A DNA stretch of 64,000 nucleotides from a virus (taxonomy: Duplodnaviria; Caudoviricetes), in IMG/VR virus record IMGVR_UViG_3300037466_003369, positions 1 through 64,000 of that record. One strand, given 5' to 3'. Below, piece after piece: positions 9,013 through 58,822 of the stretch (its first letter is position 1; the number at the start of each line of letters is the position of its first letter). The notes beneath the pieces were generated by a model, which had not been told where the DNA came from, made no database searches, and saw only the letters and a program-made list of their open reading frames with translations. Position numbers and translations under genes: made by a program.

Positions 9013-9177
9013 ATGCCGAGCAAGTCTCCCGAGCAGCGGCGTCTGATGGCCGCCGCCGCGCATGATCCGAAGTTCGCGGCCAAGGTCGGCGTGCCGCAGA
9101 AGGTGGCCAAGGAGTTCAACCGCGCCGACCAGCACGAGGGCCAGGATCGGAGCTTCCAGAGGATCAAGGCCCTCTGA
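9013..9177 (+). CDS. Small basic phage protein (54 aa), not in the ORF track
   Basis: GGAGAG RBS; MPSKSPEQRRLMAAAAHDPKFAAKVGVPQKVAKEFNRADQHEGQDRSFQRIKAL; TGATG-coupled to the portal. Confidence 0.75.
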   Translation: MPSKSPEQRRLMAAAAHDPKFAAKVGVPQKVAKEFNRADQHEGQDRSFQRIKAL

Positions 9178-11873
9178 TGTGGCCCTTCCGGCGGGGGCCG
9201 GCGAAGCCGGCCGAACCCGCGAAGGCCGCCGAGCCGGCGCGCCCGGCCAAGCGGCGCATCAGCGACACCGCCATCGCCCGCGTCATGGAGCGGCGGCCGG
9301 GCGGCTTCATGCTGACGCCGCTGAGCGAGACCCCGCGCGTCGAGCGTCCTTTCGAGCCCGCCAAGCCGCTGACCAAGGACGCCCCGGAGATGGCCTTCGA
9401 CTCCGGCGTCGAGGACGTCTTCGCGCAGCTCAACTCGGCGACCTACAACTTTGGCGAAGGCATCGGCTTCATGGGCTACGGCTACTTGGCCGAGCTTGCC
9501 CAGCGCCCCGAGTACCGCCGCGGATGCGAGGTCTTGGCGCGGGAGATGACCCGCCGCTGGATCAAGCTGACCTACAACGGCGAGGAGGACGACATCGAGC
9601 CGGAGGCCGAGGGCGACGAGGAGGACGCCACGCCCGGCGAGGCCGACAAGGACGCCGAGCAACCTGAGCCCGAAGCGCAGAAGTCCGATGTCGATCCCGA
9701 ACGGGGTGATCCGCCGGGGATCGGGCACAACAAGCCGCCGCGTCCGGCCCGGAGGGTCAAGCCCAGCGACGAGAAGCTGAAGCGGATCGAGGCGGAGCTG
9801 AAGCGCCTGAAGGTGCGCGAGGCGTTCCGTCGCGTGGCCGAACTGGACGGCGTCTTCGGCCGTGGCCACATCTACCTGGACACCGGCGACACCGAAAAGC
9901 CGGATGAGCTGAAGACCCCGCTGACGGTCAGCAAGGTCAAGATCGGCCGGCGTAAGAAGCTGAAGCGCCTCGTCGTCGTCGAGCCGACCTGGACCTATCC
10001 GCAGAACTACGACAGTCGCGATCCGCTGAAGCCGGAGTTCTTCGAGCCGCAGAACTGGCTCGTGATGCAGAAGTCGGTCCACGCGAGCCGACTGCTGACC
10101 TTCGTGGGCCGCGAGGTCCCGGACATGTTGAAGCCGGCCTACTCGTTCGGCGGCCTCAGCCTGATCCAGATGGCCAAGCCGTACGTCGACAACTGGCTGC
10201 GCACCCGCCAGTCGGTCAGCGACATCCTGCACGCCTTCACCGTCTGGGTGGTGAAGACAGACCTCAACGACATCCTGAACGGCAGCGACGACGGCGATCA
10301 GGTCGTCCGGCGGGCCGAGCTGTTCAACCGGGTCCGCGACAACCGTGGCCTGATGATGGTCGACAAGGAGAGCGAGGACTTCGCCAACGTCGCGGCGCCG
10401 CTCGCCGGGCTCGATCATCTGCAGGCCCAGGCCCAGGAGCAGATGGCCAGCGTCTTCGCCATCCCGCTGGTGGTCCTGCTCGGCATCACGCCCTCCGGCC
10501 TGAACGCCTCCAGCGACGGCGAGATCAGGGTCTTCTACGACTTCATCCACGCCTTCCAGGAGCACCTGTTCGGCCACGCGCTGCACATCATCCTGAAGAT
10601 CGTGCAGCTCTCGCTGTTCGGGGAGATCGACGAGGACATCGGCTTCGAGTTCCTGCCCCTTTGGCAGCCGACCGAGACCGATCAGGCGACGATCCGCAAG
10701 ACCAACGCCGACATCGACAAGGCCTACATCGACGGGGGCGTGCTCGATCCCTCCGAGGTCCGCGAGAAGATCGCCAACGACAAGGACAGCCCCTACCAGA
10801 ACATCGACCCCGACGCCGTGCCGGAGCCGCCGCAACCGCCGGGCGGCGATCCCTTCGGCGCCGATCCGGATGGCGAGGGCGGCTCAGAGGACGATCCGGA
10901 CAGTGGCTTCCCGCCCTCGTCCGGCGGCGGCGAGCGCCGGCCCGCGGTCCCCAAGGCCGGCGGCAACCCCAAGCCGCCCGAGCGCCGTCCGGCCGGCGGC
11001 GATCCCAAGCCCCCGCGGGCCCAGGACGCCGCCTTCAGGGAACAGGACCATCCCCGTGGCCAGCCGGGCAACGCCGGCCAGTTCGGCCCCGGTGGTGGAA
11101 AGTCTAAGACCGAGGCTCCGAAGCCGAAGTCCAAGGAGAAGGAAGCGGCCAAGGCGGCGCAGGAGCCCGCCAGCCCCAGGGAGCGTCCGCCGTTCTCCGA
11201 GGAGGAGCTGTCCGGGCTGCCGCACGTCGATGAGATCGATCAGCCGACCACGTCCTGGGAGGAGCTGAAGACCAAGGGCGAGGAGGGCCGCGCCGCCTTC
11301 GTCGAGGCGCTCTCCGTCGTGGCTGACAAGCTGAGGCTGCGGACCGACGTGACGCTGCCCGAGCAGTTGACGCCCGAGGACCTGGAGAGCGGCGACAACT
11401 TCCTGTTCGTGGCGCCGAACAAGTCCGAGGCCCGAGCGCGGGCCAAGATCGAGAGCGACTATGGCGGCAACTGGTCAAAGCTGCGCGACATGGTCCGCGC
11501 CTCGATCACCGTGTCGTCGATGGATGAGCTGCGGGCGGCTGTGATCGCCGCCGAGGACGCGGGCCTAGCCCTGGCGGCCAAGCCCAAGGACCGCTTCACC
11601 AAGCCGACGCCCGAGGGCTACCGCGATCTCAACACCCTTGTGCGGCTGCCCAACGGCATGGTGGCCGAGCTGCAGTTCCACCTGACGCCGATCATCGCGG
11701 CCAAGAACGAGGGCCACGTCCACTACGAGGCGCAGCAGCGCCTGACCCGCAAGAACGGCATGGAGGAGCCGGACGACACGTGGTCGCTTGAGGACATCGA
11801 GCGGTTCACCCAGGCGCGCGAGCGGCAGCGTGAGCTGTACGGCGCGGCCTGGGAGAAGGCGACGAAGGCCTAG
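9177..11873 (+). CDS. Portal protein (DUF1073 type) with C-terminal RelA/SpoT-family alarmone synthetase domain
   Basis: Position after TerL; VHASRLL, AQAQEQMA...IPLVVLLGITPSGLNASSDGE..FYD portal motifs; C-terminal NKSEARARAK, LRDMVRASI, GYRDLN, AELQFH, HVHYE. Confidence 0.85.
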   Translation: MWPFRRGPAKPAEPAKAAEPARPAKRRISDTAIARVMERRPGGFMLTPLSETPRVERPFEPAKPLTKDAPEMAFDSGVEDVFAQLNSATYNFGEGIGFMGYGYLAELAQRPEYRRGCEVLAREMTRRWIKLTYNGEEDDIEPEAEGDEEDATPGEADKDAEQPEPEAQKSDVDPERGDPPGIGHNKPPRPARRVKPSDEKLKRIEAELKRLKVREAFRRVAELDGVFGRGHIYLDTGDTEKPDELKTPLTVSKVKIGRRKKLKRLVVVEPTWTYPQNYDSRDPLKPEFFEPQNWLVMQKSVHASRLLTFVGREVPDMLKPAYSFGGLSLIQMAKPYVDNWLRTRQSVSDILHAFTVWVVKTDLNDILNGSDDGDQVVRRAELFNRVRDNRGLMMVDKESEDFANVAAPLAGLDHLQAQAQEQMASVFAIPLVVLLGITPSGLNASSDGEIRVFYDFIHAFQEHLFGHALHIILKIVQLSLFGEIDEDIGFEFLPLWQPTETDQATIRKTNADIDKAYIDGGVLDPSEVREKIANDKDSPYQNIDPDAVPEPPQPPGGDPFGADPDGEGGSEDDPDSGFPPSSGGGERRPAVPKAGGNPKPPERRPAGGDPKPPRAQDAAFREQDHPRGQPGNAGQFGPGGGKSKTEAPKPKSKEKEAAKAAQEPASPRERPPFSEEELSGLPHVDEIDQPTTSWEELKTKGEEGRAAFVEALSVVADKLRLRTDVTLPEQLTPEDLESGDNFLFVAPNKSEARARAKIESDYGGNWSKLRDMVRASITVSSMDELRAAVIAAEDAGLALAAKPKDRFTKPTPEGYRDLNTLVRLPNGMVAELQFHLTPIIAAKNEGHVHYEAQQRLTRKNGMEEPDDTWSLEDIERFTQARERQRELYGAAWEKATKA

Positions 11874-12058
11874 TCGCCGCCCATCATCCTCTGGGCCTCG
11901 GCCTCGTCGATGATGTCGCCCCACTCGACGCCCTTGGGGACGTCGCCGGTGTAGGCCACGAACTTCTTCTCCGTGGGGGACCAGACCTCGCTGGGCCACG
12001 CGCGGGACCTCCCGCGGAACAGCGCCCCCTCGTTCTCGATGTAGATGAATTTGGCCAT
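11870..12058 (-). CDS. Small antisense protein (62 aa), candidate immunity/antitoxin for the portal synthetase domain
   Basis: MAKFIYIENEGALFRG...; GGAG RBS; own promoter at 12137-12168; stop codons overlap the portal stop. Function is inferred. Confidence 0.7.
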   Translation of the reverse strand: MAKFIYIENEGALFRGRSRAWPSEVWSPTEKKFVAYTGDVPKGVEWGDIIDEAEAQRMMGGD

Positions 12059-12136
12059 CGTCTTCTCCGGTTTGGGACCTCCCTTGTGATGTGCGGGTGA
12101 GCGCGGCGCAACGCGCATTCGCGGGCCCACGCTCCT

Positions 12137-12168
12137 CATATAGGCGACCTTGAAACAAAAAGGAAGTG
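12137..12168 (-). promoter_or_regulatory. Leftward promoter (repeated phage motif) inside the late operon
   Basis: CAC-TTCCTT-17 nt-TATATG; 5' part CACTTCCTTTTT identical to the copy at 58791-58822. Confidence 0.7.
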
Positions 12169-12171
12169 GAA

Positions 12172-12258
12172 ATGTTCCACACCCTCTGGATCATGGTCGC
12201 CGGCTGCATCGTCGGCTTCCAGGCCTTCGGATACCTGACCCTGTTCCGGGCGGCCTGA
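12172..12258 (+). CDS. Small single-TM peptide (28 aa)
   Basis: MFHTLWIMVAGCIVGFQAFGYLTLFRAA; AAGGAAG upstream; ends 4 nt before MuF. Confidence 0.4.
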   Translation: MFHTLWIMVAGCIVGFQAFGYLTLFRAA

Positions 12259-12262
12259 CCGG

Positions 12263-13063
12263 GTGTCCATCCACCATCGCCAGCGACAGGTGATCCTGCC
12301 GCGGGTGGTCCCGAACGCGGGACTGCAGGCCTACTACCGCAAGCGCCTCGACCGGCTGATCGAGGCCATGCACGACTCGGTCGCCTACTGGGTGGCGCAG
12401 GCCTATCGCGCCAATCCGCCGGAGATCGCCCAGGACGAGAGCCCGGCCATGGCCATGCGGCGGCTGATGCGCAAGCTGGCCAGTCGCTGGAACCGCGAGT
12501 TCGACAAGCTGGCCAGGAAGCTCTCGCCCGAGTTCGTGCGCCGCAACGGCCGGATGAGCGACACCCAGTTCATGGAGCACCTCAAGGCGGCCGGCTTCAC
12601 CGTGGAATTCTCCGTCAGCCGGCAGGTCAACGACGTGATGCAGGCGGCCATCGGCGAGAACGTGGCGCTCATCAAGTCGATCCCGCAGCAGTACCTGACC
12701 CAGGTGGAGGGCATGGTCCTGCGCTCGGTGCAGGCCGGACGCGACCTCTCCACCCTGTCGAAGGACCTGCAGCACCAGTACGGCGTCACGCGCCGCCGCG
12801 CGGCCTTCATTGCCAGGGATCAGAACAACAAGACCACCTCCGCGATCTATCGCGCTCGACAGCTCGAACTCGATATCGACGAGGCCATCTGGCACCACAG
12901 CCACGCAGGCAAGACGCCGAGGCCTAGCCACGTCGCCAACAACGGCAAGACCTACAAGGTCTCCGAGGGCTGGTACGACCCGGACCTGAAGAAGCGTATC
13001 TGGCCCGGCACGGAACCGAACTGCAGATGTACAGCCAAGTCGATCATTCGAGGGTTCATGTGA
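12263..13063 (+). CDS. MuF/SPP1 gp7-family head morphogenesis protein
   Basis: RAAFIARDQNNK, AIWHHS, WPGTEPNCRCTA. Confidence 0.9.
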   Translation: MSIHHRQRQVILPRVVPNAGLQAYYRKRLDRLIEAMHDSVAYWVAQAYRANPPEIAQDESPAMAMRRLMRKLASRWNREFDKLARKLSPEFVRRNGRMSDTQFMEHLKAAGFTVEFSVSRQVNDVMQAAIGENVALIKSIPQQYLTQVEGMVLRSVQAGRDLSTLSKDLQHQYGVTRRRAAFIARDQNNKTTSAIYRARQLELDIDEAIWHHSHAGKTPRPSHVANNGKTYKVSEGWYDPDLKKRIWPGTEPNCRCTAKSIIRGFM

Positions 13064-13233
13064 TGCCGGACGAGAGAGACGCGCCGATGTTCCTTTATCG
13101 CGGCCCGAAGGCGGACGACGACTGGACGCCGCCGACCTTCGGCATGGGCGTGGTCATCGGGGTGCTCGGCGGCCTCGTCGTCGCCGCCCTGATCAGCGCC
13201 GTCGTCACGCTGCCCTGGACCTACCTTGGCTGA
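13063..13233 (+). CDS. Small membrane protein (56 aa)
   Basis: TGATG-coupled to MuF; hydrophobic [24 protein letters not shown]. Confidence 0.55.
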
Positions 13234-15076
13234 CGGCGCCGGCGTCATGCTGCAGGCGCCGGGCAACCGGCTCCTCGTCCTGCGGCGTAGTCAGGAGAGC
13301 GATCATCCGGGGACCTACTGCTTCCCCGGCGGCGGCGTGGAGGAGGGCGAGACCTACGAGGACGCCGCGCGTCGCGAGCTGCACGAGGAGACCGGCTTCG
13401 ACTACCAGGGGCCACTCGCGCAGGTCGACGACCGCGATGGCTTCGTCACCTTCCGCGCCGAGCTGCCCGAGGAATTTGATCCCGAGCTGAACGACGAGCA
13501 CACCGAGGCCCGCTGGATCGAGCCTGGCGAGCACGACGCGGAGCCGCTGCATCCCGGCGTCAGGGCCACCCTCAGTGAGATGGGCTTCGCCATGGATCAA
13601 TCCATCCGCAAGCGCGCGCTCGCCTTCGACCGCGCCACGGTTCGCTCCTTCACCGTGGACGGCCGGCTGCAGGTCGAGCTGAACCCGATCTCCAAGGCCA
13701 ACGTCTGCCCCTACTACGGCGAGGAGATTCCGGACCACGAGAAGCTCGGTCTGGACCCTAAGCGCGTCTACATGCTGCTGCGCGATCCGGAGGAACTGGC
13801 CAAGGCGGCGGAGACCTTCAATGGCGTCCCGCTGCTGCTGATCCACAAGCCCTCCACCGCGGACGAGCACCCGCGCGAGCTGACCATCGGGACCACCGGC
13901 ACGGACGCCGCCTGGGAGGACCCGTACCTCAAAAACACCCTCGTGGTCTGGGACGCCGAGGGTATCGAGGCCATCGAATCCGACGAGCAGAAAGAGCTGT
14001 CGTCCGGCTACCGCTACCGCGCCGACATGACCCCCGGCGTGTTCAACGGCGAGAACTACGACGGGGTCATGCGGGACATCGTCGGAAACCACGTCGCCCT
14101 CGTCGAGGAGGGCCGCGCAGGACCCGACGTTGTCGTTGGCGATTCCAAACCAAGGAACCTCATGATGAAGATCAAGACTGCCGCGCTGCCGTCTCGGAAG
14201 GCCCTGCTTGTCCAGGGCGCCGTGGCGGCGGTCCTCGCGCCGATGATCGCCCAGGATGCCAAGCTCATCGACCTGGGCGGGGTGTTCAAGGGCGTCAACC
14301 GGAAGAACTACGCCGCCCAGCGGGACAACATCGTCTCGCGCCTGAAGCTGGCCACCGACAAGCGTCTGGCCAAGGACGCCGACTTGGAGGACGTGGTCGC
14401 CGTGATCGACGCCCTGAAGGGCGTCAACGGCGGCGACGCCGACGAGGACGACGTCACCATCGATGCCGATCTCGTGCCCGGAGCCGCCGACCCGGCCGAT
14501 CCGGAGAAGACCAATCCGGGCGTCTCCGGCGAGGACGAGGAGGAGGGCGGCCACGAGGCCTTCATGGCCAAGCTGAAGGCCAAGCTGGACGACGCCACCT
14601 ACGCCAAGGTGGTCTCGGCCATGTCCCCGTCCGCCGCCCCCGCGCAGGGCGCGACCGACGAGGAGAAAGACAAGAACGAGGAGCCCGGCGCCGAGGACGA
14701 GGAGGGACCCGAGAAGAAGCCCGAATTCGTCTCCAAGGGCGCGATGGACAAGGCCATCAACGCGGCCTCCGCCAAGGCGGTCAAGGACACCATCACGCGC
14801 CTCGCCGCCGTCCGCGAGGCGGAGAACATCTGTCGCCCGCACATCGGCGAGCTGGCCATCGCCATGGACTCCGCGGAGGCCGTCTACAAGCACACGCTGC
14901 AGACGGTCTGCCCCGACCGCGACCTCACCGGCATCCACCCCAGCGCCTTCCGGGCCATGGTGGAGATGCTCCCCACGGGCTCCGAGCCCAAGACCCCGCG
15001 GCTCGCCCAGGACGCCAAGAAGGCCAAGGCCTTCGAAGAGCGCTACCCCGGCGCCGACCGCATCAAGAGCCTTTAA
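13226..15076 (+). CDS. Nudix hydrolase fused to DUF2213 head maturation protease/scaffold protein
   Basis: Complete Nudix box [23 protein letters not shown] (13331-13399); DUF2213 motifs [29 protein letters not shown]; acidic/helical scaffold-like tail. Confidence 0.9.
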
Positions 15077-44733: not shown

Positions 44734-44765
44734 ATGCTGCACCATAGCGAGACAAAAAGAAAGTG
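44734..44765 (-). promoter_or_regulatory. Leftward promoter-motif copy
   Basis: CACTTTCTTTTTG core; -10 ambiguous (CAGCAT at 17-nt spacing). Confidence 0.4.
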
Positions 44766-47612: not shown

Positions 47613-47643
47613 ATCATAGTGGGTCCAAAAGAAAAAGAAAGTG
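47613..47643 (-). promoter_or_regulatory. Leftward promoter (repeated phage motif)
   Basis: CAC-TTTCTT-16 nt-TATGAT. Confidence 0.65.
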
Positions 47644-51718: not shown

Positions 51719-51749
51719 AAGATAGCGCTTCCAGAAGAAAAAGAAAGTG
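51719..51749 (-). promoter_or_regulatory. Leftward promoter (repeated phage motif)
   Basis: CAC-TTTCTT-16 nt-TATCTT. Confidence 0.7.
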
Positions 51750-55192: not shown

Positions 55193-55395
55193 TCGGTCTC
55201 TCCAGTCGTGGTTCCGGGCAGCTTAGCCTGATCGGAAGAAGAAAGGAAGTCATGTGAAGAGCGCAGGATGTCGCCCCCGCGGAACTCCCAGGTCTGGTGG
55301 CACAGCGAACACGAGGTCTCGCCGTCCCTCCGGCCGCGCCAGCCGCCCGTGAACCTGTGCCGGCCGTCCTGGGTCATGGGGCAAGGGCCGATCAT
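55189..55395 (-). CDS. Small hypothetical protein
   Basis: ATGA-coupled; CSLC. Confidence 0.45.
   Translation of the reverse strand: MIGPCPMTQDGRHRFTGGWRGRRDGETSCSLCHQTWEFRGGDILRSSHDFLSSSDQAKLPGTTTGETE
55220..55251 (-). promoter_or_regulatory. Leftward promoter-motif copy
   Basis: GAC-TTCCTT-17 nt-TAAGCT. Confidence 0.5.
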
Positions 55396-58790: not shown

Positions 58791-58822
58791 AAGATAGGCG
58801 CTCCTGAAAGAAAAAGGAAGTG
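58791..58822 (-). promoter_or_regulatory. Leftward promoter (repeated phage motif)
   Basis: CAC-TTCCTT-17 nt-TATCTT; a possible divergent TTGAAC-17-CATCGT at about 58834 faces the tRNA. Confidence 0.75.

Follow-up and report, generated by a model that had tools for sequence, protein, structure and literature searches.

A Tis1-like candidate immunity gene convergent to a portal-fused, Tas1-like synthetase in a tailed-phage genome

Introduction

Temperate phages encode (p)ppApp synthetases that are fused to MuF proteins (Apk2) and followed by a Tis1-like gene (BcTis1) and by a gene for an HD hydrolase (Aph1); the tis1-like gene is always present together with Apk2, and the presence of aph is variable (Ahmad et al. 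2023, PMC10083569). Likewise, toxSAS enzymes which synthesize (pp)pApp are neutralised by Tis1-like domains acting at the acceptor site (Dominguez-Molina et al. 2024, PMC11782079), and MuF polymorphic toxins with small downstream open reading frames (ORFs) for immunity proteins have been defined (Jamet et al. 2017, PMC5576092). A different link between a portal protein and alarmones has been reported for phage T7, the portal of which is said to bind and inhibit RelA and SpoT (2026 preprint, 10.64898/2026.01.27.700999). The present study deals with orf62, a gene for a protein of 62 amino acids on the minus strand of a 72,275-bp virus genome (IMG/VR record IMGVR_UViG_3300037466_003369, complete according to CheckV), the first 64 kb of which are referred to as the window. 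This gene lies tail-to-tail with a portal gene whose product ends in a RelA/SpoT-type synthetase domain. It is probably a Tis1-like immunity gene directed against this enzyme, inverted relative to it and equipped with a putative promoter of its own that belongs to the class used in the replication block.

Phage head proteins carrying (p)ppApp synthetase toxins are known. The portal is the channel through which the DNA leaves the capsid, and the lineage described here fuses the enzyme to it. With this arrangement it becomes a testable question whether the enzyme serves against the newly entered host before being turned off, or is merely tolerated during assembly. A first-pass annotation of the window had proposed orf62 as an immunity gene for the portal-fused synthetase, and this core idea is well supported by comparison, namely by the adjacency of both features in viral loci, by Tis1 as the first- or third-ranking fold match, and by the published cassette of Apk2, a Tis1-like protein and Aph1.

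Results and Discussion

Linkage of orf62 and the synthetase domain

Loci were collected from both sides, 24 viral loci being fetched by means of the small protein and 31 by means of the synthetase domain, and both features were placed by profiles. The search from the synthetase side used an alignment; a scan with a single protein gave near-identical relatives only. In all 26 loci that were found through orf62 and contained a synthetase and enough flanking sequence, the small gene was located 11 to 152 nt from the synthetase (11 nt between orf62 and the RelA/SpoT homologue (RSH) domain in the window). From the opposite side, the small gene was recovered beside every complete domain with at least 38% identity except in L053, where the synthetase domain lies inside a protein of 898 aa, and in L035, which is truncated.

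The synthetase is carried in three different ways. In one group, made up of Bordetella phage PHB04 and some 20 relatives from metagenomes, a PF04860 portal is followed by a protein of ~483 aa with a C-terminal synthetase and then by the small gene, which is encoded on the same strand as the synthetase with overlapping start and stop and is usually followed by an HD_4 hydrolase (PF13328). As a cultured relative, PHB04 provides the ordinary co-directional cassette for comparison. A fusion of the synthetase to the portal in combination with a convergent small gene was found in the window, in its near-identical relatives L005 and L006, and in L048, which codes for an 866-aa portal-RSH fusion (PF06381 portal; 44% synthetase identity) and shows the same overlap of the stop codons by 2 nt. 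L024, finally, encodes a portal-DUF7178 protein and then a separate synthetase protein of 572 aa (42% RSH identity), which is convergent with a string of small ORFs. This string (L024:6453-7201, plus strand) comprises four overlapping ORFs of 59, 61, 67 and 68 aa, the last of which is the orf62 homologue; the other three are without known family.

The adjacency of orf62 and the synthetase survives changes of the carrier, with three architectures, as well as a change of the strand. Three phage lineages have kept the convergent layout, which is an old feature of the lineage with a PF06381 portal; the arrangement, in which the putative antidote is uncoupled from the toxin in strand and promoter class, is kept down to ~42% identity of the enzyme domain.

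More distant synthetase domains were observed in the middle of phage proteins (L053:2697-5393, 898 aa; L056:2448-4670, 740 aa), and no recognisable orf62-type gene adjoins them. Natural fusions of orf62 and a synthetase were considered and rejected, as those members of the family that are longer (up to 238 aa) contain unannotated extensions or tandem duplications and not RSH domains; an 836-aa match to the family is a false positive caused by a B-lectin repeat. On the contig of P0183, the gene of a distant family member and an unannotated gene for 215 aa share 38 nt in a tail-to-tail overlap, and Abi_alpha as well as the S subunit of a type I restriction system are encoded nearby. The two genes may thus form a toxin-immunity pair of their own within a defence island.

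The C-terminal domain of the portal protein

Among solved structures, the best match to the last ~260 residues of the portal protein is Tas1 (6ox6_A, E 3.4e-5), and RelA follows far behind (E 0.23). Tas1 is the (p)ppApp synthetase effector of the type VI secretion apparatus (T6SS) of Pseudomonas aeruginosa. The Pfam family RelA_SpoT remained below threshold on the portal of the window (E 0.023; 15.4 bits vs. a cut-off of 27) and reached 26.8 bits in the relative L004. In 15 aligned phage domains the residues Lys/Lys, Asp-x-x-Arg, Gly-Tyr-Arg-Asp, Glu-x-Gln and His are invariant and occur in the order of the RelA/SpoT motifs. Because these motif residues are unchanged in all 15 phage versions, the synthetase domain looks active, and its product is presumably (p)ppApp.

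Fold of the orf62 protein

The AlphaFold2 model of the orf62 protein, which was calculated from a 47-sequence alignment (predicted local distance difference test (pLDDT) 88.8; predicted template modelling score (pTM) 0.73), consists of five strands and a C-terminal helix. When the model was aligned exhaustively with 48,161 PDB representatives, Tis1 (6ox6_B) ranked third (Z 3.8; root-mean-square deviation (rmsd) 3.9 Å; 56 of the 62 residues placed on the 76-residue chain) behind two Sm-like proteins. The family member of L050, which is encoded by the ORF between the synthetase and HD_4, shares 28% identical amino acids with orf62 (hhalign probability 95.9%). For the model of this protein (pLDDT 83), 6ox6_B ranked first of the 48,161 structures, one Z unit above the next match (Z 5.0; rmsd 3.5 Å; 59 aligned residues). 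This agreement is hard to call chance, because the adjoining enzyme has its nearest match in chain A of that crystal (6OX6). Judging from the models, orf62 probably works like Tis1 and shares its fold; it is not assigned to the Pfam family PF24154 (Tis1_ImmP). In an ESM-Atlas neighbour cluster, 11% of the members carry PF24154 (score 0.83), which is regarded as a lead only. The family profile gave a single match to PDB sequences, which is a chance match (E 0.021).

orf62 is a true and conserved gene

The G+C content of orf62 amounts to 0.56/0.44/0.98 at the first, second and third codon position (GC1, GC2 and GC3), and ~0.63/0.45/0.92 is typical of true genes in this genome vs. ~0.45/0.65/0.95 for antisense shadows. 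With a GC3 of 0.98 and a GC1 exceeding the GC2, orf62 is therefore a real gene of the minus strand and not an antisense shadow. If the frame is extended upstream to the ATG at 12139 (89-aa form), the GC3 of the extension is only 0.70. Because of this drop and of the GGAG ribosome-binding site (RBS) in front of it, the ATG at 12058 is the probable start. The 89-aa upstream start was ruled out by its codon composition, and a 44-aa ORF on the minus strand (12136-12270) was ruled out since its codon phase is wrong for the genome. The stop codons of the portal gene and orf62 overlap by 2 nt in the sequence CTAG (portal TAG at 11871-11873; orf62 stop as the complement of 11870-11872). A structured leader of orf62 was rejected (z 0.74).

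In a word-indexed search, 48 clusters of homologues with 60-78 aa and 52-98% identity were obtained, none of which is annotated; a full scan of 1.84 billion protein representatives with a hidden Markov model enlarged the family to 162 clusters (at 50% identity). Across 47 aligned homologues 12 residues are invariant, and these are centred on the hairpin I-E-N-E-G-A-L-F-R-G. Neither orf62 nor its 89-aa form matched any Pfam family up to E 10. This null result and the shortness of the frame are what could be cited in favour of a mere chance ORF antisense to an intergenic stretch; the codon-position values, the confident fold and the dozens of homologues with invariant residues speak against it, and with conservation refuting this explanation its probability is practically nil. 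orf62 is a true, conserved gene. Thus, the minus-strand gene for 62 aa within the plus-strand head operon, as well as its GGAG motif and its stop overlapping the portal TAG, were read correctly in the first-pass annotation.

A promoter-like element of the replication block

The sequence TTCCTT-N16-18-TATNNK occurs twice in the window, vs. 0.02 occurrences expected, and the element copies at 12168 (ahead of orf62) and 58822 are identical in 28 of 34 bases. The word NACTTYCTT was found at six sites of the minus strand and one site of the plus strand, and the pattern ACTTYCTT-N16/17-TAWNNK gave five matches, all on the minus strand, vs. 0.00 expected from 100 shuffles; a sixth, looser copy is located at 44765 on the same strand. 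An RBS and the ATG of a minus-strand gene follow each copy, and the four pattern copies other than that of orf62 head genes of the replication block. The leader measures 20-25 nt in five of the six copies vs. 78 nt for orf62. The resemblance of the orf62 motif to the element at 58791, which had been noted before, is hence real and extends to more copies than was claimed. The leader word GAGCGTGG, by contrast, which had been regarded as a signal common to the leaders of orf62 and 50810, occurs 5 times vs. 5.35 expected and is attributed to chance.

All members of the element family (58822, 55251, 51749, 47643, 44765 and 12168) contain an A-rich/T-rich inverted repeat, about GAAA-N-TTTC or GAAA-N4-TTTC, which is centred on CAC and overlaps the -35-like hexamer. 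A phage regulator may use this repeat as its operator.

Judging from its motif, the element is predicted to be a phage-specific promoter of the same class as the promoters of the replication block. Because this class is common to the replication block, an expression of orf62 apart from the late operon is plausible. No terminator was found after orf62 in a scan, and therefore transcription of orf62 would continue, in antisense, into that end of the portal gene which codes for the synthetase. Late transcription, in turn, must cross orf62 in antisense.

Proposed mode of action

From fold, genomic context and literature we infer binding and neutralisation of the enzyme. The orf62 protein would bind to the portal's C-terminal, Tas1/Apk-like (p)ppApp synthetase domain and, by analogy with Tis1 and Tas1, it would block the pyrophosphate-acceptor site. 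The blocked enzyme could then not drain ATP in the cell that produces the virions. With a promoter of its own, the antidote would be made independently of the late head operon and, going by the motif class, probably before it. HD_4 (Aph-type hydrolase, PF13328) is absent across the whole 72-kb genome, and because the genome is without an Aph-type hydrolase, the putative binder encoded by orf62 is its only recognisable antidote. An exclusion of superinfecting siblings by orf62, as suggested earlier, is a speculation.

A more far-reaching reading, which we consider doubtful, would join these elements as follows. The synthetase on the portal, or else its C-terminal domain after cleavage, would be a cargo of the virion that enters the next host together with the DNA, gives a short pulse of (p)ppApp there and shuts down metabolism or defence of this host. 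The inverted antidote under its replication-block promoter would switch off the incoming enzyme within minutes and would later cover its new synthesis, and the bacterial copies would be orphan antidotes captured by hosts, blunting synthetases delivered by phages or by the T6SS. If this were true, a timed toxin pulse would be written into the orientation of the genes.

Evidence against the immunity function and alternative explanations

Several observations weigh against a Tis1-like immunity function of orf62 or against its separate expression. Taken by themselves, the Z scores of 3.8 and 5.0 are low and below the safe level for a match between small barrels, and Sm/SH3-like small barrels score nearly as high; Foldseek gave no match below E 1 for the orf62 model against the PDB. 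The Pfam family PF24154 showed no match at E ≤1 in the protein of the window, in 46 relatives or in divergent members, nor was it detected in six-frame searches of the phage genome itself and of five relative phage records, and a wider profile search yielded no bridging sequences annotated as Tis1_ImmP. A scan with the sigma-70 consensus detected no promoter at orf62; the element is a promoter-like motif, and the term 'early' is based solely on which genes carry it.

Copies of the gene without a synthetase have to be added. L008 (5191-7201) codes for a PHB04-type carrier (residues 1-207) which possesses a Zeta-toxin domain (PF06414, E 7e-24) in place of the synthetase, and this is followed by an extra ORF of 62 aa and then by an intact orf62 homologue. 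Furthermore, none of the homologues in bacterial genomes (10 of 10) has a synthetase within 5 kb, and five of these genomes contain no synthetase of this type anywhere. These orphan hosts comprise Microvirga, Caldimonas, Bradyrhizobium, Hydrogenophaga, Methylobacterium and several metagenome-assembled genomes. The orphans that were checked sit among chromosomal housekeeping genes (tctC, an ABC-F gene, tuf, an rlmB-like gene and osmC), and it is chiefly these copies that leave space for a function of orf62 independent of the synthetase. Most orphan copies are intact; L062 is a tandem two-domain fusion, and L068 and L070 are truncated. In some of them, an extra region with the motif L-Y-D-G-Y-D-G-G was observed preceding or following the domain.

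Since T6SS effectors commonly have orphan immunity genes, the bacterial orphans fit the immunity function of orf62; they suggest that hosts may collect such antidotes, as for those effectors. L008 bears the usual footprint of a swap of toxin-immunity cassettes, after which the former immunity gene stays on as an orphan; the product of the gene behind the portal is therefore a carrier of polymorphic toxins, and old immunity genes are left in place. It could also be argued that orf62 acts on the host apart from the synthetase, be it as a small regulator or in anti-defence, and merely shares an accessory module beside the portal. Bacterial homologues standing alone between housekeeping genes, the homologue beside a Zeta toxin instead of a synthetase in L008, and a separate promoter of the replication-block class, as many host-takeover genes have, would agree with such a function. 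Hitch-hiking, however, does not predict an adjacency that persists through three carriers and a change of strand, the fold matches to Tis1 would be a coincidence, and the extra 62-aa ORF between toxin and orf62 in L008 is what a cassette swap usually leaves; a function of this kind is very improbable. Only slightly less improbable is that orf62 is a partner of the synthetase and not its inhibitor, either as chaperone or adaptor for folding of the cargo or its delivery through the portal, or as a cofactor which activates the enzyme or sets its choice of substrate. A strict adjacency shows functional coupling and not its sign, and the HD_4 hydrolase downstream in the PHB04-like phages could confer immunity alone, as Aph1 does for Apk2 (PMC10083569). 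Yet the nearest solved fold, Tis1, is an inhibitor, and BcTis1, encoded at the same gene position, protects, though only in part; the genome studied here, being without the HD_4 hydrolase, needs another antidote, and orphans in bacteria without the enzyme would be senseless for an activator or a chaperone.

Rather unlikely is an error in the timing alone, the immunity function being correct. The element would then be an operator, another regulatory site, or a middle or late element, and orf62 would be made together with the portal or would act mainly by antisense transcription into the 3' end of the portal gene. The missing sigma-70-like consensus, the short palindrome around CAC in the motif, a hairpin with a T-run at 12180-12166 that was called terminator-like by the scan, and the lack of a terminator 3' of orf62, which allows an antisense run into the synthetase-coding region, are all compatible with this explanation. 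So are L024 and L048, in which the homologue is placed behind other minus-strand genes and lacks such a motif. On the other side stands the geometry of a promoter: a TAT-NN-T/K hexamer lies 16-17 nt after ACTTYCTT in four of the six copies (the copy at 55251 has TAAGCT at 17 nt, and that at 44765 is without such a hexamer at this spacing), and the RBS and ATG follow 20-25 nt past the hexamer in all copies but that of orf62. Moreover, all copies face minus-strand genes, and the block they serve is that of replication and nucleotide metabolism. Taken with the linkage and the fold, a Tis1-like immunity gene with its own promoter is the probable explanation for orf62.

Genome setting of the locus

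The genome has a G+C content of 66%. Genes for packaging, head, tail and lysis occupy the plus strand from ~0.9 to 41 kb, and from 41.5 kb on the minus strand carries genes for replication and nucleotide metabolism, including those for a pol III alpha-like polymerase, an SNF2 helicase, ThyX, DUF3560 and DUF932. No integrase was found in the phage genome, and for this reason the phage may not be temperate. GenBank phages gave no megablast match to the 5 kb around the orf62 locus. Beyond orf62 follow a short hydrophobic ORF, a MuF gene (PF04233), which in the window is a gene apart from the portal-RSH fusion, and a gene for a NUDIX-DUF2213 fusion (Table 1). The NUDIX domain of the latter may conceivably act as an enzymatic co-antidote and stand in for the HD_4/Aph hydrolase of the related phages.

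The hydrophobic ORF of 28 aa is the ATG-started inner part of an ORF with a TTG start (12166-12258), which shows a G+C content by codon position of 0.55/0.42/0.90, and it is kept in the near-identical relatives L005 and L006. The orf62 promoter's -35-like hexamer, read as reverse complement, forms the RBS of this ORF, AAGGAAG, and its ATG lies inside a 6-bp palindrome (GTGGAA-ATG-TTCCAC).

Table 1. Positions of the features described in the text (window coordinates, unless a locus is named).
Feature	Position	Strand	Remarks
Portal protein	9177-11873	+	898 aa; PF06381 at aa 197-515, E 4.4e-87; C-terminal Tas1-like RelA/SpoT synthetase
RSH region common to other phages	11190-11870	+
Tas1-aligning core	11409-11708	+
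orf62	11870-12058	-	62 aa plus stop; Tis1-like candidate immunity protein
orf62 leader	12059-12136	-	78 nt between -10-like hexamer and ATG
GGAG RBS of orf62	12068-12065	-	6 nt 5' of ATG 12058-12056; read from sequence
Promoter-like element ahead of orf62	12168-12137	-	CAC-TTCCTT (12165-12160)-17-TATATG (12142-12137)
Hydrophobic ORF	12172-12258	+	28 aa; between portal and MuF; gene-like codon composition
MuF gene	12263-13063
NUDIX-DUF2213 gene	13226-15076		head protein
NUDIX domain	13226-13630	+	fused to DUF2213; Pfam NUDIX E 5.7e-21
Element copy	47613-47643	-	before gene for 278-aa DUF6011 protein (ATG 47587)
Element copy	51719-51749	-	before 108-aa gene (ATG 51695)
Element copy	55220-55251	-	before 90-aa gene (ATG 55192)
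Element copy	58791-58822	-	closest second copy; heads 56-aa gene (ATG 58768) preceding DUF3560 gene
Orphan loci L061-L070	e.g. L061:5010-5183, L063:5004-5180, L064:4998-5183		bacterial genomes

Comparison with known systems

The prophage system Bxa-Bsi-BAH, in which an ADP-ribosyltransferase fused to MuF is combined with two immunity proteins, one acting by binding and one as an enzyme (PMC11699363), follows the same logic of a dual immunity for a polymorphic toxin associated with the phage head; the chemistry of the toxin and the folds of the immunity proteins differ. Another comparable system is the FaRel toxSAS module (PMC11782079). Its (pp)pApp synthetase is neutralised by a Tis1-like binder of the acceptor site, the N-domain of AT2faRel, as well as by a hydrolase, the small alarmone hydrolase (SAH) ATfaRel. 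Unlike the locus described here, it is a chromosomal toxin-antitoxin operon and not a virion protein, and the pZFD domain of AT2faRel is absent from orf62.

Tas1-Tis1 (Apk1-Tis1; 6OX6) resembles the locus in both components, since no solved structure lies closer to the portal C-terminus than Tas1, and Tis1 ranks first or third among the structures matched to the small protein, over nearly its full length. Tis1 and the orf62 protein are both small, stand alone and are encoded beside the toxin. On the other hand, orf62 shows no detectable sequence similarity to Tis1, the carrier is a phage portal instead of PAAR/T6SS, and the gene is convergent to that of the toxin, whereas tis1 lies downstream and co-directional.

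A similar gene cluster is that of the MuF-type toxins of temperate phages, Apk2-BcTis1-Aph1 (Bacteroides caccae; PMC10083569). It likewise comprises a portal-adjacent protein of the head module that ends in a (p)ppApp synthetase, the small gene of Tis1 type that always goes with it, and an HD hydrolase of variable presence. Its gene order is exactly that of PHB04 and of about 20 metagenomic relatives of orf62. In the window, however, the toxin resides on the portal itself (PF06381) and MuF is separate, instead of the toxin being C-terminal on the MuF protein. The small gene is inverted and has a putative promoter of its own, whereas it is a same-strand downstream ORF in the Bacteroides cluster as in the PHB04-like relatives, and neither Aph/HD_4 nor an integrase was found in the genome.

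A literature search revealed no paper on a portal-fused synthetase or on an inverted immunity gene. The first-pass annotation had presented the inverted, temporally offset layout inside a portal locus as a new arrangement. This stands for the way in which the gene is oriented, for its separate promoter and for the use of the portal as carrier, but not for the pairing as such, since Tis1-like immunity genes beside phage (p)ppApp synthetases have been published (PMC10083569). In comparison with the described systems, the locus thus adds a portal carrier, a convergent gene, a separate predicted promoter class and the lack of a hydrolase to an already known kind of Tis1-like antidote.

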